Position numbers and translations under genes: made by a program. The notes beneath the pieces were generated by a model. That model saw only the letters and a program-made list of their open reading frames with translations, was not told the origin of the DNA and made no database searches. DNA of 63,150 nt from an uncultured Candidatus Actinomarina sp. (GTDB taxonomy: Bacteria > Actinomycetota > Acidimicrobiia > Actinomarinales > Actinomarinaceae). The DNA is taken from positions 1 through 63,150 of the forward strand of contig CACOLU010000005.1 of the NCBI GenBank assembly GCA_902628045.1, given 5' to 3'. Shown here piece by piece: positions 3 to 56,488 of the stretch; position 1 is the first letter of the stretch; each line of letters opens with the position of its first letter.

Positions 3-308
3 GTTGATAAGCTTGCTGGTGATGTTGAGGTCATTATAAATACTACGCCATTAGGAATGCCACCATATGAAAACGAAAAACTTCCAATAAGTCATCTTAA
101 TTTTTCAAAATTAGAACTATTTTATAATTTTGGATATGGTGTATCAAAGAAACTTATAAGTGATCTTCCTAAAAATGTAACATCAATTGATGGGACAATA
201 ATGTTAATTGCTCAAGCAATATCTTCGTTTAACATATGGACAGGACAATGTATAAAATTTAACGAAGCTTACAAGGAAATTGTAGAAAGGATAGATTATG
301 AAAATTAA
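3..308 (+). CDS. aroE: Shikimate dehydrogenase, C-terminal part (5'-truncated by window edge)
   Basis: Frame is open from base 3: VDKLAGDVEVIINTTPLGM (NTTPLGM motif), then DGTIMLIAQAISSFNIWTG, typical of the AroE C-terminus. First gene of the aro cluster. Confidence 0.85.
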   Translation, partial: VDKLAGDVEVIINTTPLGMPPYENEKLPISHLNFSKLELFYNFGYGVSKKLISDLPKNVTSIDGTIMLIAQAISSFNIWTGQCIKFNEAYKEIVERIDYEN

Positions 309-1479
309 ATATCTTACAGCTGGTGAAAGTCATGGACCAGAATTAACTGCAATTATAGAAGGTATTCCATCAAATTTTGAAGTAAGTAAAAATTATATTG
401 ATGATTTTTTATCAAGAAGGCAAAAATCTTTAGGTTCTGGTGGAAGAATGAATATTGAAAAAGATGAGATTTTTATTACTTCAGGTGTAATTAATAATTT
501 ATCAACGGGCGGTCCCATAGCAATAAAGATTATTAATAAAGATTGGAAAAATTGGAAGGATAAAGAAATAGAACCTTTCGTAGTTCCTCGTCCAGGACAC
601 GCTGACTTGGTTGGGACATTTAAGTATAACCACAATGACATAAGGCTGTCACTTGAAAGAGCAAGTGCACGTGAAACTGCAATTAGATGCGCGATTGGAG
701 CAATTTGTCATCAAATCCTTGGCCAACTTGGAGTTGAAGTAGTAGGTTATGTTTCATCTATTGGTGAGCAAAAGTTAGAAAATATCAATTTAGAAGATTT
801 AGGTCTAATTAAAAAACATGTCAATGAATCTGAAGTGTCATGTCCAGATAAAAAAGTAAGTGAATTAATGATAAATGAAATATTAAAGGCAAGAAAGAAA
901 AAAGACACTTTAGGTGGTTCTGTAACTTTAGTTGCAAAAAATTTTCCTGCAGGGTGTGGTAGCTATGTTCATTTTGATAGAAAGTTAGATGCAAAACTTG
1001 CTTCATCCATGATGTCTATACAAAGCGTTAAAGCAGTTGAGGTTGGCAATGGAGTAGAAGCATCTAAAGATTTTGGAACTGCTGTACAAGATCAAATAGT
1101 TTTAAACGAACAAAATATTGAAAGAATCACAAATAATTTAGGTGGATTTGAAGGAGGTATGTCAACAGGAGAACCAATTATTATAACTTCTTATTTAAAA
1201 CCTATAAGTACAACTTTGACTCCTATAAAAAGTGTTGATTTGGCATCTCAGAAAGAGACAGAAACTACCTATGAAAGGTCTGATACCTGTGCTGTGCCAA
1301 GAGCTGTCCCTATTTTTGAAAGTGTAATATCTATAGATCTTTTGAATTCTTTAATTGAAAATACAGGTGGAGATAATAAAGAATTAATTTTAAATAGAGT
1401 TAATAAAATAAAAGACATAACTCTTAATAGCTTTAATTTGGAAAATAAAACATGGTCCATGAAATATGAAAATGAATAA
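298..1479 (+). CDS. aroC: Chorismate synthase
   Basis: TAGESHG N-terminus, PRPGHADL, ERASARETA, SIQSVKAVEVG, GGFEGGMSTG, RSDTCAVP motifs. Confidence 0.98.
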   Translation: MKIKYLTAGESHGPELTAIIEGIPSNFEVSKNYIDDFLSRRQKSLGSGGRMNIEKDEIFITSGVINNLSTGGPIAIKIINKDWKNWKDKEIEPFVVPRPGHADLVGTFKYNHNDIRLSLERASARETAIRCAIGAICHQILGQLGVEVVGYVSSIGEQKLENINLEDLGLIKKHVNESEVSCPDKKVSELMINEILKARKKKDTLGGSVTLVAKNFPAGCGSYVHFDRKLDAKLASSMMSIQSVKAVEVGNGVEASKDFGTAVQDQIVLNEQNIERITNNLGGFEGGMSTGEPIIITSYLKPISTTLTPIKSVDLASQKETETTYERSDTCAVPRAVPIFESVISIDLLNSLIENTGGDNKELILNRVNKIKDITLNSFNLENKTWSMKYENE

Positions 1480-1966
1480 TTCATTTTATTTATGTGGGTT
1501 TATGGGTGTTGGAAAAACTACGATTTTGAATAATATTAAACGACAAACTAAATATACGTGTTTTGATTTGGATGAAAGTATAGAAAATAAGTATGGTCAA
1601 ATAAATAGTATTTTTAAAGAACAGGGAGAGACTTTTTTTAGAGAAATTGAAGAAAAAGAATTTTTTGTAAGTCAAAACAAATTTAATTTAATTTCTATAG
1701 GTGGCGGTGCAATAGAAAATGATAATATTTTTGAGACTTTACTCGAAAGTAATCAAACTATTTATTTAAGTCTTGACTTTGAAAGCCTTTGGGAAAGAAT
1801 TAAAAATTCTAACAGGCCACTAATTAATACTGGAAGAGAAATTCTTGAAAGTAGATATAAAAACAGATTAAAAAGGTACGAGATGATGGAATATAAGATT
1901 TCTAATGAGAATGTAAAAGATACTACAAGCAAAGTATTAGAAGTAATGGAAAAGCAAAATGTCTAG
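1466..1966 (+). CDS. aroK: Shikimate kinase (start may be ATG 1472)
   Basis: GFMGVGKTT P-loop, DLD, GETFFREIE, GGG, RPL motifs; located in the aro operon. Confidence 0.95.
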   Translation: MKMNNSFYLCGFMGVGKTTILNNIKRQTKYTCFDLDESIENKYGQINSIFKEQGETFFREIEEKEFFVSQNKFNLISIGGGAIENDNIFETLLESNQTIYLSLDFESLWERIKNSNRPLINTGREILESRYKNRLKRYEMMEYKISNENVKDTTSKVLEVMEKQNV

Positions 1967-2951
1967 AAATATTTATCTAAACAATACTGAAGAATTAATT
2001 AAATATATTAACGAAGATTTACAAAATGAGAGCTTAATTATTCTCGATTCTGCGCTTGAACAATTTAAATTACATAGCAACTTAAATGCAAGTCATGTTT
2101 ACTTGAAGGTTTCTGAAGAAACAAAAAATTTAGAAACAGTTGAAAAAATTTGGGAAATAATGTTTTCATCAAATTTAAACAGATCACACGAAATAGTAAT
2201 TATTGGAGGCGGAGTTATGCTTGATCTCTGCTCTTTTGCTGCAAGCACATTTAAAAGAGGTATTTCCTATACATTAGTTCCATCTACTTTATTAGCTATG
2301 GTTGATGCATCTCATGGAGGTAAAAATGGTTTTAATAATGATTATGGAAAAAACCAGATTGGCACTTTTAATTTACCGAAGGGTGTAATTGTGTGTTTTG
2401 AACTACTAAATACATTGAAAGAAAAAGATTATAAAGATGGCTTAATCGAGCTTGTTAAACATGGACTAATTGGTAGTAAGGAAATATTTGATAAATTGAT
2501 TTCTGCAGAAGATTTCAAAATAGAAACTGAGGTAATCAAAAAAGGAATACAAATCAAAGAAGATATTGTAAAAGAAGATTATTTAGAAACTGGAAAAAGA
2601 AAATATTTAAATTTTGGACATACAATAGGCCACTTAATTGAGCAAGATTCAAAGTTTACTGTATCACACGGTGAAGCTGTAGCTATAGGAATGATTTACG
2701 AACTTGGACTATCAAAGAAACATTTTGGTTTACCGCAAGAAGTAATTGATTTATATGTATCATACCTGGAGAAACTTGATTATAAAAAATCATATGAATT
2801 TGAAAATAGTATCGATTACTTATTAGGAATTTTAAAAGATGATAAAAAAAGTAAATCTGATTCAGTAGATATTGTTTTACTGTCAGATGTATCGCAGCCA
2901 AATCTTATTTGTATAAGTTTTGATGAATTGATTGAGGTGATTAAAAATTAA
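1959..2951 (+). CDS. aroB: 3-dehydroquinate synthase
   Basis: IGGGVMLD, PSTLLAMVDASHGGKNG, LNFGHTIGHLIE, HGEAVAIGM motifs. Confidence 0.97.
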   Translation: MSRNIYLNNTEELIKYINEDLQNESLIILDSALEQFKLHSNLNASHVYLKVSEETKNLETVEKIWEIMFSSNLNRSHEIVIIGGGVMLDLCSFAASTFKRGISYTLVPSTLLAMVDASHGGKNGFNNDYGKNQIGTFNLPKGVIVCFELLNTLKEKDYKDGLIELVKHGLIGSKEIFDKLISAEDFKIETEVIKKGIQIKEDIVKEDYLETGKRKYLNFGHTIGHLIEQDSKFTVSHGEAVAIGMIYELGLSKKHFGLPQEVIDLYVSYLEKLDYKKSYEFENSIDYLLGILKDDKKSKSDSVDIVLLSDVSQPNLICISFDELIEVIKN

Positions 2952-3384
2952 AAGTATATATTTTATCAACGGTCCCAATCTTAATTTTTTAGGCGTGAGA
3001 GAAATTACACAATACGGTTCAACAAGCTATGATGAGTTAAAAAATTTAGTTAATTCTGAAGCTAAAAAGTTAAAAATTAAAACTGTTTTTTTTCAATCAA
3101 ATATTGAAGGTGAAATTGTAAATTATATTCAAAACCTAATTAATGATAAAAATTCATGGATTGTAATTAACCCTGGAGCATATACACATACAAGTATTGC
3201 AATAAGGGACGCTCTGCAGATTTATGCACAAAACAATAAAATAGTTGAAGTTCATATTTCAGATATAAATCAAAGAGAACAATTTAGAAAAACAAATTTA
3301 ATTTCTGATATTTGTAATAAATCAATTGTTGGCAGAGGTGTGCAAGGATATATTGAAGCACTGGAGTATATTAATGAACAGTAA
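2947..3384 (+). CDS. aroQ: Type II 3-dehydroquinate dehydratase, apparently starting at a non-canonical ATT codon
   Basis: The conserved INGPNLNFLGVRE motif lies upstream of the called GTG (2995). An in-frame TGA sits at 2938-2940 with no ATG/GTG/TTG between it and the motif. SD GAGGTG at 2934-2939 is 7 nt before ATT 2947. Also FQSNIEG, INPGAYTHTSIAIRDA, EVHISD. Confidence 0.93.
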   Translation: MKSIYFINGPNLNFLGVREITQYGSTSYDELKNLVNSEAKKLKIKTVFFQSNIEGEIVNYIQNLINDKNSWIVINPGAYTHTSIAIRDALQIYAQNNKIVEVHISDINQREQFRKTNLISDICNKSIVGRGVQGYIEALEYINEQ

Positions 3385-4195
3385 GCAAACAATTGCCTAT
3401 CAAGGTTCATCTGGCTCATATTCAGAAGAACTTTTAAAAAAGGAATATCCAAATTATCTGTACCATCCAACTGAGACGTTTACTGAATTAATATCCTATG
3501 TAAAATCTGATTCTGGAATTGGATTATTGCCTGTTGAAAATTCAATCGCAGGTACTGTGAATGAAGCATACGAAGAGCTAATAGATAGTGGTCTTAAAAT
3601 ACTTGCTGAATATGTGCTTAGAATTAACCACAGTTTAATAGGATTAGTTGGTTCAGATTTAGTAAATATTACAAATGTTATTTCACACCCACAGGCATTA
3701 CAGCAGTGCAGCAAGTTTATACAAAAGCATAACTTAAGAATCACTCCAGTCTTTGATACTGCCGGAAGTGTATTTGAAATTTTAGAAAATAATGAACTAA
3801 CTACGGCTGCGATTGCAGGAGATCATTTTGAAAGTGATGAAAGGTTCTTGATTTTAGAAAAAAATATATCAAATCATGAAGAAAATTATACAAGATTTCT
3901 TCTTATTGGAAATTTAGATTTAGATCAGAATCAAGTTAAAAATAAGTTTTCATCAGTGCTTATATCTGATGATAAGCCAGGCTCTCTATTACAGTCTTTG
4001 AATATTTTTAGTGACCTTGATATAAACCTTACAAAACTTGAATCACGACCAATACTGGGAAGACCCTGGGAGTATAAATTTTATATTGATTATGAATTAG
4101 AAAATTTGGAAAAACAATCTGAGCTTGAGGAAAAAATAAGTAAAGTTTGTAAAGAATTTAAGCTCTTGGGACATTATCCAAAAGCTATTCAGTAA
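3374..4195 (+). CDS. pheA: Prephenate dehydratase with ACT domain
   Basis: AYQGSSGSYSE, LPVENSIAGTV, SHPQALQQC, NYTRF, DKPGSL, NLTKLESRP, WEYKFYID. Start taken at ATG 3374 (MNSKQ). Confidence 0.95.
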   Translation: MNSKQTIAYQGSSGSYSEELLKKEYPNYLYHPTETFTELISYVKSDSGIGLLPVENSIAGTVNEAYEELIDSGLKILAEYVLRINHSLIGLVGSDLVNITNVISHPQALQQCSKFIQKHNLRITPVFDTAGSVFEILENNELTTAAIAGDHFESDERFLILEKNISNHEENYTRFLLIGNLDLDQNQVKNKFSSVLISDDKPGSLLQSLNIFSDLDINLTKLESRPILGRPWEYKFYIDYELENLEKQSELEEKISKVCKEFKLLGHYPKAIQ

Positions 4196-5264
4196 TTCTC
4201 CACTGAATACCTTGTTCAGAATCTTCTATTTGCAAACCAGAAGATTCTAATATATCTCGAACTTCATCAGAAAGCTTGTAATTTTTTTCGTTTCTTAACT
4301 TTGACCTTAGTAATATTAGTTTTTCAACTAAAATTTCAAAACGTTCGGTATTCTTCTTATTGGATTCTATCTGAATTTCTAAATTAGCAATTTCTTTTAA
4401 AGTAGATTTATCTATCGAATTTGCCTCAGTTTCAACATTATCTATTTTCTTGACAGAGCCATTTTTTTCTGAAACCAATAGCTTTTGTAGAATATCTAAA
4501 CTTTCTTCAGAATCTTTTTCGAAGACATGAGTCCCTTCTTTGTTTAAAATAGTTACATTTCCTAATCCAACAACTTTAAATGTTTCATTTTTTCCAGAAA
4601 TTATTAAGGCAGTATGTTCATCGATGCCAAGAATGTTTGAATAAGACTTATCTAAAAGTGTCTTCATTCTATTTTCGCCAACATAACTAAAGCTTGTATC
4701 ATGATTTCCACCCTCTGCATTATTAAAGTGAGGAACTACTGTACAAGATAGACCGTAAACATCTAATAAATTTAATCCTTTTTCCCAATAAGGGTCTTTA
4801 CCTACTTTATAAATTTCGTAAACCGGCAGTGTATGTTCTCCAAGAGTAGAGGCTGCTGCACTTGCAAATAAGCTTTTACCACCCTTTATCAGATGATTTT
4901 TTAAAGTTTGTTCAAACTCATTACCATGCCATAATTTGCTTGCATAACTTGGACTTCCTGGTCCAGCAAAAATAAATGATGCACTTTCTAATAATTGAAT
5001 TGATTTAAAGAAAGATTTTGTATTTAGCTCTTCAATTTTCCTGTAACTAGCTAGTTTCATTTCAACATTTAAACTTACTTTGTAAAAGTCTATAATTTTT
5101 TCAACGAGCTGATTAGCATTTTCTTGAAACCCAAATGGTGAGTCAATCATAAAAATACTTGAAGAATCATCTAATCCTTCAAGCAGTTCTCTATGGACAC
5201 TAACTAAATTAGGACTCGTTTCACCTGATCCTAAAATAGCTAATGATCCTAAAGCGTTTTTCAT
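4185..5264 (-). CDS. Peptidase S51 / cyanophycinase-like hydrolase fused to a C-terminal CysRS anticodon-binding-like helical domain
   Basis: LAILGSGE, IFAGPGSP, FASAAA (nucleophile Ser), VVPHFNN, GIDEHTALI; coiled linker; tail RSKLRNEKNYKLSDEVRDILESSGLQIEDSEQGIQW resembles the CysRS C-terminus. ATG 5264 is preceded by TATAAT-6 nt. Confidence 0.75.
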   Translation of the reverse strand: MKNALGSLAILGSGETSPNLVSVHRELLEGLDDSSSIFMIDSPFGFQENANQLVEKIIDFYKVSLNVEMKLASYRKIEELNTKSFFKSIQLLESASFIFAGPGSPSYASKLWHGNEFEQTLKNHLIKGGKSLFASAAASTLGEHTLPVYEIYKVGKDPYWEKGLNLLDVYGLSCTVVPHFNNAEGGNHDTSFSYVGENRMKTLLDKSYSNILGIDEHTALIISGKNETFKVVGLGNVTILNKEGTHVFEKDSEESLDILQKLLVSEKNGSVKKIDNVETEANSIDKSTLKEIANLEIQIESNKKNTERFEILVEKLILLRSKLRNEKNYKLSDEVRDILESSGLQIEDSEQGIQWRITE

Positions 5265-5315
5265 GAATCTATTATATATTTTTTTTGTACACAACTAAAG
5301 GTGTATAATTTAAAC

Positions 5316-6314
5316 ATGGCAAGTTTATTAGCTTTAATTCTTGAAAAATTTACAATCGAAATAATTCCTAGACTTCCATTGTTTCTTAGGACACCATTGT
5401 ATGTAAATATATTAAAACTTAGAAAAGTTCGTGATCGAATTAGGCTCGACGTAACAAGAAAAAATCCTACATTTCAAGACCGTTTAGATTATGCAATTGA
5501 TTCAAGAGCAAATCTGAATAATTCAGGTGAAAGAATATTACCTTTTAATGATGAAGTTAAAATTGAAGAAATTGAGGATTCTCCTGTAAAAATTTATAAA
5601 TTTACTCCAAAAAATGCAGAGACCGGAAAGTATGGTGTTTATTTTCATGGAGGAGGATATTTTGCGGGGAGCATTAAATCACATAAAAATTTTGTTTCAA
5701 TAATTTCTCAAAAATCAAATTTAGTAATTTATTTTTTTGAATATAGGCTTAGTCCAGAGCATAACTTTCCTGCTGCACATGAAGATGCAAAGATAGCTGT
5801 AGAATTTATTGATGCTCTTCATAAAGATGAGCACTCAATTTGGATGGGTGAATCAGCTGGAGGAGGTTTAGCAACAGGGCTTGTGGTAGATGATGGGTTT
5901 ATTTATAATCCTGACAGTCTCATTTTGCTTTCGCCCTGGCTTGATTTATCAGATGGATTTCAAGATAAAAGATTTTTTAAAAACAGAGATGTAACAATAA
6001 TTATTGAAGGAATGTATGAGGTTGGAGAGTTTTACGCAGGAGAGTACAGCACCACAAATCCAGTGTTATCTCCAGTTTATGCTGATATAAATAGTTTTCC
6101 AGACACTTTAATACAAGTATGCTCAGATGAATTACTTTACAATGATGCAATTGAATTTGTTAAAAAATTAAGAGACAAAAATACAAATGTCCAACTTCAA
6201 ACTTGGGATAAACTCTGGCATGCATGGCACTTTTTTCCAATTAAGGAAGCTTTTGAAGCCATAGATAATATAGCTGAATATATTAAGTCTACAGAACTTC
6301 ACTCTTCTAAATGA
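5316..6314 (+). CDS. Alpha/beta hydrolase, HSL-family esterase/lipase
   Basis: YFHGGGY oxyanion motif, EYRLSPEHNFPAAHED, GESAGG nucleophile elbow, LSPWLDL, late WHAWH. Start ATG 5316 follows TATAAT. Confidence 0.92.
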   Translation: MASLLALILEKFTIEIIPRLPLFLRTPLYVNILKLRKVRDRIRLDVTRKNPTFQDRLDYAIDSRANLNNSGERILPFNDEVKIEEIEDSPVKIYKFTPKNAETGKYGVYFHGGGYFAGSIKSHKNFVSIISQKSNLVIYFFEYRLSPEHNFPAAHEDAKIAVEFIDALHKDEHSIWMGESAGGGLATGLVVDDGFIYNPDSLILLSPWLDLSDGFQDKRFFKNRDVTIIIEGMYEVGEFYAGEYSTTNPVLSPVYADINSFPDTLIQVCSDELLYNDAIEFVKKLRDKNTNVQLQTWDKLWHAWHFFPIKEAFEAIDNIAEYIKSTELHSSK

Positions 6315-7045
6315 TGAAGTGCAAATCCAAAAGGTAATTCGAGTCTATTATCAGACATAACCTTTTCATTTTTTAGAATTCTATAAGTTTCATCATCTGC
6401 AGTAATTTTTCCATCGTTTAAAATTATACTTCTATTGCATATTTCTAATGCCATTGGTAAATCATGAGTCACAAGGATAACTGAAACTTCTAAATTTTTA
6501 AGTATATCTATAAGCTCTCTTCTTGATGCAGGATCTAAGTTTGAACTCGGTTCATCCAAAACTAGTAATTCAGGCTCTGAAGCAAGAACGCTAGCTATTG
6601 CTACCTTTCTTTTTTGACCAAAGCTTAGATGATGAGGTGGTTTGTCTTTAAATTGTAACATTTTGACTTGTTCAAGTGCTTTAATTGAATTTTTCTTGAC
6701 TAATTCGTCACTAAATCCAAAATTTTTTGGTCCAAACATTACATCTTCCAGCACAGTTGGCATAAAAAGTTGATCATCAGGATCCTGAAAAACCAAACCT
6801 ACAGACTTTCTAATTTGAGAGATATTTTCATCTGAAAAAGGCTTTTCATTTAATGTAATTTGTCCGTTTAAGTCACCTAGAATGCCATTTAAATGAAGAA
6901 TGAGAGTAGTTTTACCTGCTCCATTTGGCCCCAGCACAGCAAGTCTTTCCCCTTTTGATAAGCTTAGATTTATATTTTCGAGAGCTTTAAATCCATCTGG
7001 GTATTCAAAACTCAAATTATTTACATTTAGGTATTGCTTATTCAT
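6299..7045 (-). CDS. cbiO: ECF-type Co/Ni transporter ATPase (CbiO/NikO)
   Basis: GPNGAGKTT, VFQDPDDQLFMPTVLEDVMFGP, HLSFGQKRKVAIA, LDEPSSNLDP, VTHD. ATGA overlap with cbiQ. Confidence 0.92.
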   Translation of the reverse strand: MNKQYLNVNNLSFEYPDGFKALENINLSLSKGERLAVLGPNGAGKTTLILHLNGILGDLNGQITLNEKPFSDENISQIRKSVGLVFQDPDDQLFMPTVLEDVMFGPKNFGFSDELVKKNSIKALEQVKMLQFKDKPPHHLSFGQKRKVAIASVLASEPELLVLDEPSSNLDPASRRELIDILKNLEVSVILVTHDLPMALEICNRSIILNDGKITADDETYRILKNEKVMSDNRLELPFGFALHHLEE

Positions 7046-7806
7046 AGAGCGAGCCTATCAACAATACAAATTACAACTGAGAATATAGAAATTAGCAGAA
7101 TTAAATTAGATGAATTAAATTGTCGTGCCTCTAATTCTAATGTTCCTTTGAAACCCCGAGAAATCATTGAATTGTAAACTCTTTCTCCTCTTTCATACCC
7201 TCTTATTAAGAGAGCACCCGATGCAAATGCAAGTGGCTTTAATGTTCTTAACCCTTTTTCGGAATAACCTCTCGAGCGCATAGATATTTTTACTCTTTTT
7301 ACTTCGTCAATAAATACATCAATATATCTGATTGCAAAAGAAAATATAGAAATTAACAAAGGCGAAACTTTAAGTATTTGTAATCCATAAATTATTTCAA
7401 TATTAGACGTAGTGGCTGTAAGAACAATTGCTAAAGTGACACAGAGAGTTATTTTAATCAGAATTGATATCATTTCGTCGACTCCAGTTTTGTAAATACT
7501 CAAACTAAATAAAGTGGTTAAAATTTCTCCGTTCCCTTTACTTATAAACGGCAAAAATAAAGCGAATAATATGAACGGTATATCTATTGAAAGTCTTTTT
7601 AAATACGTTTTGGGTTGTAATTTTGAAATAATCAACAATCCTGCAACTATTAATGCCTGTAATAAAATCAAAACATTATTTTCTAAACTCAAAAAAGCAA
7701 TAGAAAGAATAATTGCAAAAAAAGAAATTAATTTTATTTCAGGTTTGATTTTTACTAAATACGAGTCACTATGAGTTTCTAAATGATGAGAATGGGATGT
7801 TTCCAT
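7042..7806 (-). CDS. cbiQ: ECF-type Co/Ni transporter transmembrane T component (CbiQ/NikQ) with His-rich N-terminus
   Basis: Hydrophobic helices; AIRYIDVFIDE, SMRSRG, LLIRGYERGERVYNSMISRGF (xRx motifs); N-terminus METSHSHHLETHS. Confidence 0.9.
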   Translation of the reverse strand: METSHSHHLETHSDSYLVKIKPEIKLISFFAIILSIAFLSLENNVLILLQALIVAGLLIISKLQPKTYLKRLSIDIPFILFALFLPFISKGNGEILTTLFSLSIYKTGVDEMISILIKITLCVTLAIVLTATTSNIEIIYGLQILKVSPLLISIFSFAIRYIDVFIDEVKRVKISMRSRGYSEKGLRTLKPLAFASGALLIRGYERGERVYNSMISRGFKGTLELEARQFNSSNLILLISIFSVVICIVDRLAL

Positions 7807-7820
7807 ATTTGTATATCTTA

Positions 7821-7837
7821 ATGCAAATAATTTGCAA
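7821..7837. promoter_or_regulatory. Nur/Fur-family operator upstream of cbiQO (ATGCAA-N5-TTGCAA)
   Basis: Perfect 7-1-7 palindrome TGCAAAT-A-ATTTGCA (7822-7836), about 15 nt upstream of the cbiQ ATG and just downstream of the Fur-family gene. Matches the Streptomyces Nur consensus tTGCaa-N5-ttGCAA as I recall it. Confidence 0.75.
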
Positions 7838-7845
7838 TAAAAGAT

Positions 7846-8256
7846 TTATTTGCAATTTTTACAAAATCCAGAATATATGAAGTGATTTGTTATCTCTCTA
7901 AAATTTGTTTTGCTTGTTATAAGATCGTTTACTTTTTTGGATGTTTTTATATCAAGATCTGAAATATCTCCACAAGATTCACATACAATATGAATATTTG
8001 AGTGAACATCTTTCACAAAATACAAACCTGAACCGTGTACTTGGTGAGAATGTTCAATTAAGTTTATGTTTTCTAAAAGTTCTAATGTTCTGTATACAGT
8101 AGCTAAGTCTATATTTTTATCTTTTTTTAACGAAAGTTTGTGTAGTTCTTCAACAGTAAAATGTTTGTGTCCAGATGTTTCAAGAATTTTGCAAACAACT
8201 TCTCTTGCATTAGTTATTCTCTTGCCTCTTTTTCGTAATTCATTAACGAAATCCAT
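7846..8256 (-). CDS. nur: Fur-family metalloregulator, Nur (nickel uptake regulator)-like
   Basis: KRITNARE, HKHFTVEE, DLATVYRTLELL, HSHQVHG (cf. Nur HAHLGHG), IHIVCESC, NHF..GFCKNC. Start taken at ATG 8256 with TATAAT at 8272-8267. Confidence 0.85.
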   Translation of the reverse strand: MDFVNELRKRGKRITNAREVVCKILETSGHKHFTVEELHKLSLKKDKNIDLATVYRTLELLENINLIEHSHQVHGSGLYFVKDVHSNIHIVCESCGDISDLDIKTSKKVNDLITSKTNFREITNHFIYSGFCKNCK

Positions 8257-8290
8257 ATTCAAGTATATTATATGTCTGACGGGCAAAATT

Positions 8291-32770: not shown

Positions 32771-34153
32771 ATGAAATCATTGCGTAAGCAAGGGATCATT
32801 CTATTTACTATTTTTGCCCTTGTTTTAGTAGCCTGTGGTGGTGACGCTGCTGAGGAGGAAGTTGTAGAGGAAGCAACACCTGAAGTTGTTGAAACTTTAG
32901 ACTCACCTGCAGTAACAACCGCACAATCTGTTAAAACAGGAGTGGGAGTAACTTCAGACCCATGTCCAGAAGCTGTTGGATCATTTCCAACAGGTGCAGA
33001 CCCATCCAAGGGATGTATATATCTTGGGCTCATAAATGACTATACAGGTCCTTATGGAGCACTAGGTCCAGCACTTGAGCTTGGACAAAGAGCATTCTGG
33101 CTATGGGCAAACACATCCGGCGGAGTTGGAGACTATAGCGTAACAATTGTTGAAGGTGGAGACGCACAATACAATCCTGCAAAACATTTAGAGGTTTATA
33201 ATTCTCAAAGAGATAATGTTGCAGCATTAGCTATGTCTTTAGGAACACCGCAAACTTTATTTATTCTTGATGAACTAGATAAAGATAATATGATTGCAGC
33301 ACCAATGAGTTGGTATTCAGGTTATGCATATAAAGAACTTGATAAAGGCTTAATTGTTGAATTCGGATCTTCATATTGTGCACAAGGTATGAATGCTCTT
33401 GACTGGGCGCTAGCAAGCTTACCAGTAGACATTAAAACTATTGGAATTATCGGTAATGCTGGTGATTACGGTGGTGACTGGGCTAAAGGTGTACAGGCTG
33501 CTGCAGAAGCAAACGGAGTAACAGTCGCATGGAGTTATTTACCTCCAGCTACTGAATTCGACGTTGCACAAGCAGTCGGCTTAATGGTTACACAACCAGT
33601 CGACGCTTATTTCCCAGCTTTAGGACCTACAGCAATGGCTCAAGTTGCTGGTGGTGCATTCCAGCAAGGCATAACGCCAATTGCTATGATGGCAGCTCCA
33701 TCATTTAACGATAGTTTCGTTAGAGAAGGATTTGCTTTGGCACCATTATTTACTTCTGGGTCAATGTATGTAACTGCTTTCACACAACCGTATGAAGCAG
33801 ATACACCAGGTCATGCAGCTATGAGAGCTACTTTTGAAGCAGTGGGTCAAAATACAGGTAACTTATTCGTTACAGCTGGTTGGACATCACAGTATCATTT
33901 AAGAGATGTACTCAAAGCCGCTATAAAAGGTGGAGATTTAACAAGAGCGGGTATTAGAAGAGCAGCAGCTAATGTTGATGTTAGTTCTGATCAAATGATG
34001 CCTATTAAAAATCTTGGTCGTGATGGAGGTCAAACAGAAACATATGTTGGAGTTCCTACAGCAGACAATTTGAGTGGTATTAACACATTAGCTTGGCCAT
34101 ACATTGGGCCAACAGCCGCAAACACTGATTGGAGTGCGGGCGCTTGTAGTTAA
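32771..34153 (+). CDS. ABC substrate-binding lipoprotein (LivK/PBP1 superfamily)
   Basis: Lipobox LVAC, acidic linker, LGLINDYTGPYG, DAQYNP, GTP, DYGGD; last gene of the operon. Confidence 0.9.
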   Translation: MKSLRKQGIILFTIFALVLVACGGDAAEEEVVEEATPEVVETLDSPAVTTAQSVKTGVGVTSDPCPEAVGSFPTGADPSKGCIYLGLINDYTGPYGALGPALELGQRAFWLWANTSGGVGDYSVTIVEGGDAQYNPAKHLEVYNSQRDNVAALAMSLGTPQTLFILDELDKDNMIAAPMSWYSGYAYKELDKGLIVEFGSSYCAQGMNALDWALASLPVDIKTIGIIGNAGDYGGDWAKGVQAAAEANGVTVAWSYLPPATEFDVAQAVGLMVTQPVDAYFPALGPTAMAQVAGGAFQQGITPIAMMAAPSFNDSFVREGFALAPLFTSGSMYVTAFTQPYEADTPGHAAMRATFEAVGQNTGNLFVTAGWTSQYHLRDVLKAAIKGGDLTRAGIRRAAANVDVSSDQMMPIKNLGRDGGQTETYVGVPTADNLSGINTLAWPYIGPTAANTDWSAGACS

Positions 34154-38132: not shown

Positions 38133-38209
38133 CGCGGGGTGGAGCAGTCTGGTAGCTCGCTGGGCTCATAACCCAGAGGTCGTAGGTTCAAATCCTACCC
38201 CCGCTACCA
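38133..38209 (+). tRNA. tRNA-fMet (CAT), initiator
   Basis: CGCGGGG acceptor with C1:U72 mismatch; anticodon arm CTGGG-CTCATAA-CCCAG with three G-C pairs; GGTTCAAATCC T arm; encoded CCA. Confidence 0.97.
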
Positions 38210-55874: not shown

Positions 55875-55888
55875 ATAATTATAATCTG

Positions 55889-55971
55889 TGCGGATGAGAG
55901 GACTCGAACCTCCACGAGCAAAGCTCACTAGATCCTAAATCTAGCGCGTCTACCAGTTCCGCCACATCCGC
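55889..55971 (-). tRNA. tRNA-Leu (TAG)
   Basis: GCGGATG acceptor, CTAGA-TTTAGGA-TCTAG anticodon arm, long variable arm, GGTTCGAGTCC. Confidence 0.96.
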
Positions 55972-55983
55972 TAAAATGTCGCG

Positions 55984-56057
55984 TGGGTCGCCGGGGACTT
56001 GAACCCCGAACCTGCGGATTAAGAGTCCGTTGCTCTGCCAAATTGAGCTAGCGACCC
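55984..56057 (-). tRNA. tRNA-Lys (CTT)
   Basis: GGGTCGC acceptor, anticodon loop CTCTTAA, GGTTCAAGTCC. Confidence 0.95.
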
Positions 56058-56152
56058 CTTTTAAAGATTAACTTAGATTATGATAGTTAAGTATAAATTT
56101 TTTCTATTTATTCTTTTTATAAAACAGTTAATATAGAAAAATAATTAAGTTG

Positions 56153-56227
56153 CGGGCTGTGGCTCAGCTTGGCTAGAGCGCCTGCTTTGGGAGCAGGAGG
56201 TCGTGAGTTCGAATCTCACCAGCCCGA
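56153..56227 (+). tRNA. tRNA-Pro (TGG)
   Basis: CGGGCTG acceptor, CCTGC-TTTGGGA-GCAGG, GTTCGAATC. Confidence 0.96.
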
Positions 56228-56234
56228 CAGACCT

Positions 56235-56305
56235 GCGGGTGTAGCTTAATGGCAAAGCTCCAGCCTTCCAAGCTGGCTATGAGGGTTCGATTCCCTTCAC
56301 CCGCT
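56235..56305 (+). tRNA. tRNA-Gly (TCC)
   Basis: GCGGGTG acceptor, CCAGC-CTTCCAA-GCTGG, GGTTCGATTCC. Confidence 0.96.
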
Positions 56306-56313
56306 CACGAAGA

Positions 56314-56387
56314 GCTCTCGTAGCTCAAATGGATAGAGCAACAGACTTCTAATCTGTAGGTTATAGGTTCGAGTCCTATCGAGAGCG
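56314..56387 (+). tRNA. tRNA-Arg (TCT)
   Basis: GCTCTCG acceptor, ACAGA-CTTCTAA-TCTGT, GGTTCGAGTCC. Confidence 0.96.
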
Positions 56388-56391
56388 CTGT

Positions 56392-56467
56392 GGTGATCGT
56401 AGCTCAGTTCGGTTAGAGCGCCTGGTTGTGGTCCAGGAGGTCGCGGGTTCGAATCCCGTCGGTCACC
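56392..56467 (+). tRNA. tRNA-His (GTG)
   Basis: Encoded G-1 with C73 discriminator, CCTGG-TTGTGGT-CCAGG, GGTTCGAATCC. Confidence 0.96.
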
Positions 56468-56488
56468 CTTATATTTAATAGGAGATGA

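Follow-up and report, generated by a model that had tools for sequence, protein, structure and literature searches.

What use does a bacterium with a genome of about 1 Mb make of a gene that joins a serine hydrolase to the anticodon reader of a cysteinyl-tRNA synthetase (CysRS)? The question is raised by a minus-strand gene at 4185-5264 of a 63,150-nucleotide stretch of DNA (contig CACOLU010000005.1 of assembly GCA_902628045.1, positions 1 to 63,150; hereafter the window) from an uncultured Candidatus Actinomarina sp., a member of the class Acidimicrobiia with a GC content of 30% and an assembly that is 70% complete. The gene is the sole long open reading frame across this region and, with its 359 codons and stop (ATG at 5264, stop at 4185-4187), encodes a protein of 359 residues, hereafter the fusion protein. 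We tentatively favor the view, with rather less than even confidence, that this protein docks on tRNA-Cys as a serine hydrolase and uses its catalytic triad to attack the ester of the aminoacyl group at A76. The family has been kept in the streamlined genome of a cell that ranks among the smallest free-living ones, which speaks for a genuine role in its physiology.

The N-terminal part of the fusion protein, residues 1-262 (4479-5264, minus strand), adopts the peptidase S51 fold. The AlphaFold2 (AF2) model, built on 62 relatives, reached a predicted local distance difference test score (pLDDT) of 92.3, mostly above 90 within this domain, and a predicted template-modeling score of 0.86. All 20 best Foldseek matches of the model in the PDB were S51 structures (target-normalized TM-score, TMt, 0.67-0.81; E 1e-16 to 1e-10), led by 6NQC (E 1.5e-16, TMt 0.81, 23% identity) and followed by PepE (6a4r, 1fy2) and cyanophycinase (3en0, 7uqw). 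A single-sequence phmmer search of the PDB also retrieved 6nqc (E 1.6e-8, residues 4-241). The Pfam model Peptidase_S51 (PF03575) scored 17.4 bits on the fusion protein, below its gathering threshold of 23.9, and was matched by 24 of the 62 relatives with E below 0.01. The cyanophycinase equivalog TIGR02069 gave 32.9 bits, short of its cut-off of 126.6.

Alignment with 6nqc places a complete catalytic triad in this domain. The predicted nucleophile, Ser135 (codon 4860-4862), lies in the motif FASAAA (residues 133-138) and aligns with the serine of CSAGA; the predicted general base, His179 (4728-4730), lies in VPHFNN (VPHF, residues 177-180) and aligns with PHFN; the predicted third member, Glu216 (4617-4619), lies in GIDEHT (GIDEH, residues 213-217) and aligns with GIDEVTA. 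Ser135, His179 and D215 are invariant among the 62 relatives, and E216 is conserved in at least 90% of them. Directly after the catalytic histidine comes a family-specific loop, E184-G-G-N-H188-D189-T190 (4695-4715), which falls in a gap of the 6nqc alignments and in which G185, H188, D189 and T190 are invariant (EGG.HDT). Further invariant motifs of the family are GSGETSP, P[FY]GFQEN, GPGSP.YA and PVYEIYK. Since the triad and many nearby residues are invariant at only 34-45% identity, the S51 domain looks like an active enzyme. The invariant loop beside the catalytic histidine, together with the many other invariant residues, suggests that its substrate differs from those of known S51 peptidases.

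Searches of Pfam and NCBIfam up to E 10, in which weak matches were filtered by HMMER, revealed no homology to the YbaK/ProX, AlaX, DTD or Pth editing and deacylase domains. Judged by these profiles, the fusion protein is not a member of the known trans-editing or deacylase families and could only act like them. Folds of the Fem/GNAT type, L/F-transferase, MprF, CDPS and LanB/PEARL likewise had no Pfam match, and Foldseek returned S51 structures only.

Residues 280-359 consist of one long helix and a small alpha/beta domain, homologous to the domain with which CysRS binds the anticodon. A linker of low model confidence (residues 263-279, 4428-4478; pLDDT 57-78), whose length and sequence vary among relatives, connects them to the S51 domain. 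According to DSSP on the AF2 model, the helix runs unbroken for 46 residues (280-325, 4290-4427); it is the remnant of the CysRS helical bundle and merges with the helix that opens the anticodon-binding domain. The latter occupies about residues 305-359 (4188-4352), as delimited by the tail profile, Foldseek and identity to the corresponding part of the CysRS that this genome encodes, and its CysRS-like motif, RSKLRNEKNYKLSDEVRDILESSGLQIEDSEQGIQW, stands at residues 320-355.

Like the similarity to S51 enzymes, this homology goes beyond chance, and several types of search recovered it. With the single sequence, phmmer aligned residues 300-357 to the C-termini of four solved CysRS structures (E 7.6e-5 to 0.24, including 8qhp at 7.6e-5, 6ujd at 1.9e-4 and 3tqo at 7.5e-4). 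The NCBIfam cysS models match residues 255-356 with E 5e-7, and the match to TIGR00435 covers only positions 363-464 of the 466 of that CysRS model. When searched against the PDB, the profile of the 62-member family matched CysRS with E 1.4e-13 over about 120 residues corresponding to E. coli CysRS 335-459, that is, the helical bundle and the anticodon-binding domain; a profile of the last 95 residues gave significant matches to CysRS only (E 1.4e-14 to 1e-5, E. coli 407-459). The Pfam family CysS_C (PF23493) gave 12.6 bits on the fusion protein against a gathering threshold of 23, and 50 of the 62 relatives match it, the best with E 7.9e-11. Finally, a separate model of the tail had a single confident Foldseek match, 1u0b_B (46 columns, root-mean-square deviation 1.3 A, 37% identity, probability 1.00), 1U0B being the complex of CysRS with tRNA-Cys and the tail matching its chain B. 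Most relatives are 400-430 residues long and keep the helical bundle, aligning to CysRS 335-406; the Actinomarina proteins are shorter by about 55 residues in this bundle, which is modeled as one long helix.

A preliminary description, made from the DNA letters without database searches, had already read the gene as an S51 hydrolase followed by a CysRS anticodon-binding-like domain. That two-domain reading is borne out by phmmer, by profile searches and by the AF2 model with Foldseek, structure prediction of both parts recovering the S51 fold and the CysRS-type tail alike. The motifs that it quoted (FASAAA, VPHF, GIDEH and the tail motif) are all present in the 359-residue protein, and its comparison of the tail to the CysRS C-terminus agrees with the profile and structural matches above. 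The "coiled linker" that it placed between the domains holds in part: a long helix is present in Actinomarina, but this segment is more than a coiled coil, as its counterpart in the majority of relatives is the helical-bundle domain of CysRS.

The class I Rossmann core with its HIGH and KMSKS signatures was not found in the fusion protein, matches to CysRS being limited to E. coli 335-461; the preliminary description was right in this too. The genome encodes a separate, full-length CysRS (466 residues, contig C4) with its own anticodon-binding tail, to which the tail of the fusion protein is about 40% identical. Because of this second gene, the CysRS module is best read as an extra copy of the anticodon reader and not as one part of a divided synthetase. 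Complementation in trans of a truncated CysRS was considered and rejected on the same ground, namely that the CysRS of this genome carries its own tail.

Conservation within the tail bears directly on whether it still reads an anticodon. In an engineering study of E. coli CysRS published in 2026 and based on 1U0B, Arg427, Trp432, Asp436 and Arg439 were mutagenized as anticodon-interacting residues (PMC13449415). HMMER and MAFFT alignments place R324 (codon 4293-4295), Y329 (4278-4280), D333 (4266-4268) and R336 (4257-4259) of the fusion protein, all within 4257-4295 of the minus strand, as the equivalents of these four contacts to the GCA anticodon (R427, W432, D436 and R439). The only invariant columns of the tail are R320, R324, D333, R336 and D348, the same five in the alignment of the 62 sequences and in a tail alignment of 56; three of the four anticodon-contact equivalents (R324, D333, R336) are thus invariant, and position 329 is aromatic in all tails inspected. 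Carriers as far apart as Actinomarina, Micromonosporaceae and metagenome-assembled genomes (MAGs) labeled Chloroflexota have a conserved tail, while the linker that precedes it varies freely. The anticodon-binding domain of E. coli CysRS is disordered without tRNA, from which it may be argued that the conserved arginine and aspartate residues of the tail serve RNA contact and not folding. Since the E. coli contact residues fall on conserved positions of the family tail, three of them invariant, targeting of the fusion protein to tRNA-Cys is plausible and well supported, and the protein probably acts on this tRNA or senses it. Invariance of the contact residues amid a variable linker is the strongest argument for retained binding of tRNA-Cys.

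In the mechanism that we propose, the CysRS-derived C-terminal module would bind the GCA anticodon through R324, Y329, D333 and R336, and in most relatives the helical bundle would also lie along the anticodon stem. The long helix and the flexible linker would then position the S51 domain near the acceptor end, where Ser135-His179-Glu216 would attack the ester by which A76 carries its amino acid, in all likelihood cysteine or a modified or incorrect residue. Such an attack would yield an aminoacyl-Ser135 intermediate, to be resolved either by water, i.e., deacylation, or by an amine acceptor, i.e., transfer, two outcomes to which we give about equal weight. We infer RNA binding, the nature of the attacked bond and the geometry: a helix of about 69 A if fully extended, a linker of 17 residues and a domain of about 40 A could together span the roughly 70 A between anticodon and acceptor end. 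The architecture would thereby mirror that of CysRS, with the catalytic body exchanged for a hydrolase.

The known chemistry of S51 enzymes lends itself to this proposal. PepE and other S51 enzymes react with an amino acid bearing a free alpha-amine to give an acyl-enzyme. S51 enzymes of the MccG type cleave an aminoacyl-nucleotide that mimics an aminoacyl-adenylate (PMC9239234). Taken together, these activities suggest that S51 chemistry fits an aminoacyl substrate. The deacylase or trans-editing activity put forward in the preliminary description stays a proposal, and its hydrolase targeted to tRNA-Cys is plausible by virtue of the conserved contact residues, but the selenocysteine angle that it attached to this targeting fails, as set out below. 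On the transfer side, an S51 enzyme would select Cys-tRNA-Cys by its anticodon, form cysteinyl-Ser135 and hand the cysteine not to the ribosome but to an acceptor that could be a precursor of a small-molecule thiol or a peptide. We regard this as unlikely; were it so, and we are just as doubtful here, the S51 fold would constitute a previously unrecognized class of aminoacyl-tRNA-dependent enzymes.

Several points weigh against an attack on aminoacyl-tRNA. To our knowledge, all characterized S51 enzymes act on peptides or small conjugates, no deacylase or aminoacyl-tRNA transferase reads an anticodon, and tRNA-Cys presents no mischarging problem for a trans-editing enzyme to solve. The dominant neighbor of the family is a generic alpha/beta hydrolase with matches to S33 aminopeptidases, and one locus has an M17 aminopeptidase, so that the context resembles peptide breakdown; no tRNA-Cys gene lies near the family gene in any of 93 loci. 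The function seems dispensable, given that the family is patchily distributed, being present in 29 of 115 other Acidimicrobiia genomes and in about 3% of other Actinomycetota, and that the copy in the Actinomarina genome G099 is broken. The NCBI name of the relatives, moreover, places the same C-terminal domain in proteins of the YqeB family, for which we know of no tRNA role.

One of the two main rivals, which fits the peptidase-like neighbors, is a tRNA-sensing peptidase, in which an ordinary S51 exo- or dipeptidase would be switched on or off by uncharged tRNA-Cys as a signal of cysteine shortage. A precedent exists in GCN2, whose HisRS-like domain senses uncharged tRNA for its kinase domain. 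The S51 fold and the triad are typical of peptidases, peptidase-like neighbors recur (an Abhydrolase_1/6 gene with Hydrolase_4 matches in 45 of about 65 loci; the M17 aminopeptidase of locus L054), and the conserved anticodon-contact residues fit this idea as well as they fit an enzyme acting on the docked tRNA. Against it, the context offers no evident cysteine-specific peptide substrate, and the invariant loop by the catalytic histidine, with the many other invariant residues, suggests a substrate unlike those of known S51 peptidases. We judge a sensor of this type rather unlikely.

In the other main rival, the tail would have been repurposed, in which case it would not bind tRNA at all and would serve oligomerization, localization or contact with a protein such as CysRS or with the ribosome, the S51 domain degrading a cyanophycin-like or Asp-containing dipeptide. 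Relatives are labeled as cyanophycinase-like exopeptidases by the Joint Genome Institute (JGI), the closest solved structure, 6nqc, does without such a tail, the domain is named for YqeB proteins as well, and the long helix could be a coiled-coil dimerizer. Against this, three of the four anticodon contacts are among the invariant tail positions, and these positions do not resemble a hydrophobic interface; the tail has been kept from Actinomarina to Micromonosporaceae and Chloroflexota-labeled MAGs beside a freely varying linker; and the cyanophycinase equivalog is far from reached, at 32.9 of the required 126.6 bits. A tail diverted from RNA to such uses therefore seems doubtful to us.

The transfer branch of the proposed mechanism would include, as a special case, a cysteinyl transferase in a mycothiol-like pathway, which would move cysteine from Cys-tRNA-Cys onto an acceptor of the GlcN-inositol type and so replace the ATP-dependent ligase MshC. 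The gene set of Actinomarina is compatible with it. All 34 sampled Actinomarina genomes with a detected CysRS-type gene have one such gene and no MshC-like paralogue, and none of 25 has MshD, so that canonical mycothiol synthesis is, on gene content, absent from Actinomarina. Among the same 25 genomes, 23 encode inositol-1-phosphate synthase and 17 an MshB/LmbE-like deacetylase (about 180 bits), and a distant MshA-like glycosyltransferase of family 4 (GT4) is found in Actinomarina at 150-190 bits. The GT4 enzyme may nevertheless be something other than MshA, and LmbE enzymes serve in other roles too.

In other Acidimicrobiia, MshA accompanies all 29 carriers of the family and 69 of the 86 non-carriers, a difference (Fisher p 0.006) that is uncorrected for phylogeny and sits on a high base rate; in addition, Acetyltransf_6 and PIG-L genes follow 3-4 kb downstream of the family gene in one locus of metagenomic origin. 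Nonetheless, the family occurs in 9 of 26 MshA-positive genomes without an MshC-like paralogue as against 20 of 72 with one (p 0.62), 17 genomes with MshA and without MshC lack the family too, and in the Actinomycetota loci examined the family gene is never adjacent to mshA or mshB. Replacement of MshC was accordingly set aside as a general rule, no complementarity being found, and as an account of the fusion protein it appears improbable. Independently of the family, 26 of the 98 MshA-positive Acidimicrobiia genomes have no MshC-like paralogue; near-complete examples (G025, G035, G039) combine clear MshA and MshB homologues with a single CysRS-type gene.

The least likely alternative, Sec-linked trans-editing, in which the protein would remove selenocysteine (Sec) or another near-cognate residue mischarged on tRNA-Cys in organisms that use Sec, is very improbable, as selD occurs in 19 of the 29 family-bearing genomes and in 50 of the 86 others (115 non-Actinomarina Acidimicrobiia, Fisher p 0.52), ten carriers of the family have no selD, and Pfam and NCBIfam indicate no homology to known editing domains. 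What speaks for it is that CysRS can mischarge selenocysteine and that the genome does use Sec, as the preliminary description had surmised: on another contig (C6), outside the window, lie a selD with one in-frame TGA (7289-8206) and a gene for tRNA-Sec with anticodon tca (33812-33904). The relevance that it had attached to this trait did not survive comparison across genomes, in which presence of the family proved independent of selD, and the selenocysteine link was rejected. For the record, selD is present in all 36 sampled Actinomarina genomes, nearly all copies carrying the TGA.

The family itself is sizeable. It comprises about 336 clusters at 50% identity with E below 1e-30, the majority of which match over two stretches, one for each domain, and more than 580 genome loci carry it. 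Among Actinomarina, it was found in 31 of 36 sampled genomes, those without it being 79-87% complete. It is abundant in marine and freshwater Acidimicrobiia, about a third of the sampled genomes of this class carrying it, is sporadic elsewhere, and occurs as well in MAGs labeled Chloroflexota, Dormibacterota and Acidobacteria; cultured carriers exist, e.g., Dactylosporangium and Salinilacustrithrix flava. In the Actinomarina genome G099 (C2:198507-199308), an in-frame TAA splits the gene into two matches; either the copy is a pseudogene or the sequence may be in error. Databases, in which the domain architecture is already visible, call relatives "CysS/YqeB C-terminal domain-containing protein" or, in the case of JGI, "cyanophycinase-like exopeptidase". 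Full-text literature searches on the fusion, on PF23493 and on YqeB/CysS found no paper on the family.

Upstream of the gene, a TATAAT box resembling a -10 element (5271-5276, minus strand) stands 6 nt 5' of ATG 5264, and reading of the upstream sequence found no Shine-Dalgarno sequence before this codon. A TATAAT close to the start codon without a ribosome-binding site is the usual picture of leaderless actinobacterial mRNAs. The arrangement suggests a leaderless transcript starting at or near 5264, and it favors this start over an alternative TTG at 5294, which would lengthen the protein by ten residues; the site of ATG 5264 is also where more distant Actinomarina orthologues begin. At the other end, the last codons and the stop overlap by 11 nt (4185-4195) the 3' end of pheA (3326-4195, plus strand), the prephenate dehydratase gene according to Pfam, with which the fusion gene converges in 14 of 15 Actinomarina loci. 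As a consequence of this overlap, transcription of the two genes must collide. The gene pheA closes an apparent shikimate/aromatic operon on the plus strand of the window (3-4195), in which, apart from pheA, the genes were read by eye: a partial aroE at the start of the operon (window from 3), aroC (298-1479), aroK (1466-1966), aroB (1959-2951) and aroQ (2995-3384).

On its 5' side, the fusion gene adjoins a divergent esterase of the hormone-sensitive-lipase type (Abhydrolase_3, GESAG subfamily by Pfam and NCBIfam; 5301-6314, plus strand). This neighbor is present in 15 of 15 Actinomarina loci at a median gap of 43 bp, and here lies 36 bp from the start of the gene; it may be co-regulated with the fusion gene. 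Besides the esterase and the convergent pheA, the conserved neighbors in Actinomarina are cbiO/cbiQ and a Fur-family regulator. In the window, the pair cbiO and cbiQ, which encodes a cobalt/nickel transporter of the energy-coupling factor type, and the regulator gene occupy 6299-8286, beside the esterase.

In the 45 of about 65 non-Actinomarina loci that have it, the Abhydrolase_1/6 gene stands directly upstream of the family gene on the same strand at a median gap of 3 bp, for which reason the two are probably co-translated. This partner is generic, its closest solved relative being the generic amide hydrolase 3KXP and its Hydrolase_4 matches pointing to S33 aminopeptidases. No homologue of it was found in the 70%-complete genome studied here, and the Actinomarina esterase may represent its non-orthologous replacement. 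Beyond the alpha/beta hydrolase, no second neighbor recurs across the sampled lineages. The M17 aminopeptidase of L054 lies upstream of the family gene, and contexts are heterogeneous in MAGs labeled Chloroflexota, Dormibacterota or Acidobacteria and in metagenome contigs (alpha/beta hydrolase, M17, methyltransferase, APH-type kinase, ClpS-DUF2017, ZnuABC).

Some features of these loci stand apart from the questions above. A Mn/Zn transporter of the ZnuABC type converges on the family gene in 24 other loci, mainly of the Ilumatobacteraceae type and from unclassified Actinomycetota MAGs, so that metal transporters are found near the family in two different arrangements (cbiO/cbiQ and ZnuABC type). 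In three metagenomic or MAG contigs, genes for ClpS and DUF2017 lie just upstream (L095 5114-5961; L096 7197-8005, overlapping; L099 2724-3477) and are themselves preceded by ctaA/ctaB; this proximity may reflect synteny of a lineage rather than a functional link to N-degrons. The window also carries a cluster of six tRNA genes at 55888-56468 (two on the minus strand, Leu-tag and Lys-ctt, and four on the plus strand, Pro-tgg, Gly-tcc, Arg-tct and His-gtg) and a tRNA-Met gene at 38133-38209; a tRNA-Cys gene was found neither in the window nor in the 70%-complete assembly.

Among known systems, the nearest structural relative of the fusion protein, 6NQC ("peptidase from an acI-B1 Actinobacterium", a cyanophycinase-like exopeptidase of COG4242), shares the S51 fold, the N-terminal GSGE and the Ser, His and Glu motifs, but has 259 residues and is devoid of the C-terminal helix, the CysRS module and the EGG.HDT loop; a literature search found no paper describing its function. 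PepE and the cyanophycinase CphB have the same fold and the same geometry of the Ser-His-Glu triad (Foldseek E 1e-12 to 1e-10, TMt 0.71-0.76) at only 13-17% identity, and the nucleophile elbow of the fusion protein is A-S-A-A instead of G-x-S-x-G-like; the fusion protein also carries additional invariant motifs and the tRNA-type tail. By chemistry, the nearest documented likeness to an attack on an aminoacyl-adenosine ester is offered by MccG, an S51 enzyme that cleaves an amino acid-nucleotide bond. MccG, however, is a stand-alone enzyme that detoxifies processed microcin C, its substrate being a small isoaspartyl-nucleotide, and it has no RNA-binding module (PMC9239234).

The CysRS side of the fusion has its own counterparts. 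YqeB-family proteins, a likeness that rests on the NCBI name of the relatives, would carry the same C-terminal domain outside a synthetase, with a different catalytic part. MshC, the Cys:GlcN-Ins ligase, is likewise an actinobacterial offshoot of CysRS that handles cysteine. It retains the catalytic core and lacks the anticodon-binding domain, the reverse of what is seen in the fusion protein, and the distributions of the two are not complementary. Last, CysRS itself (E. coli 1LI5 and 1U0B; 8QHP, 6UJD, 3TQO) has the same C-terminal alpha/beta fold, with homology extending over 335-461 in the long relatives and 407-459 here, whereas its Rossmann catalytic core, connective peptide (CP) domain and stem-contact (SC) fold have no equivalent in the fusion protein, in which an S51 hydrolase stands in their place. 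If the tail does bind tRNA-Cys, this would be the first known enzyme of hydrolase fold to choose its substrate by the anticodon through a module borrowed from a synthetase, and it would reveal a new quality-control step, a new tRNA-dependent route of cysteine biosynthesis or a new way of sensing cysteine supply.

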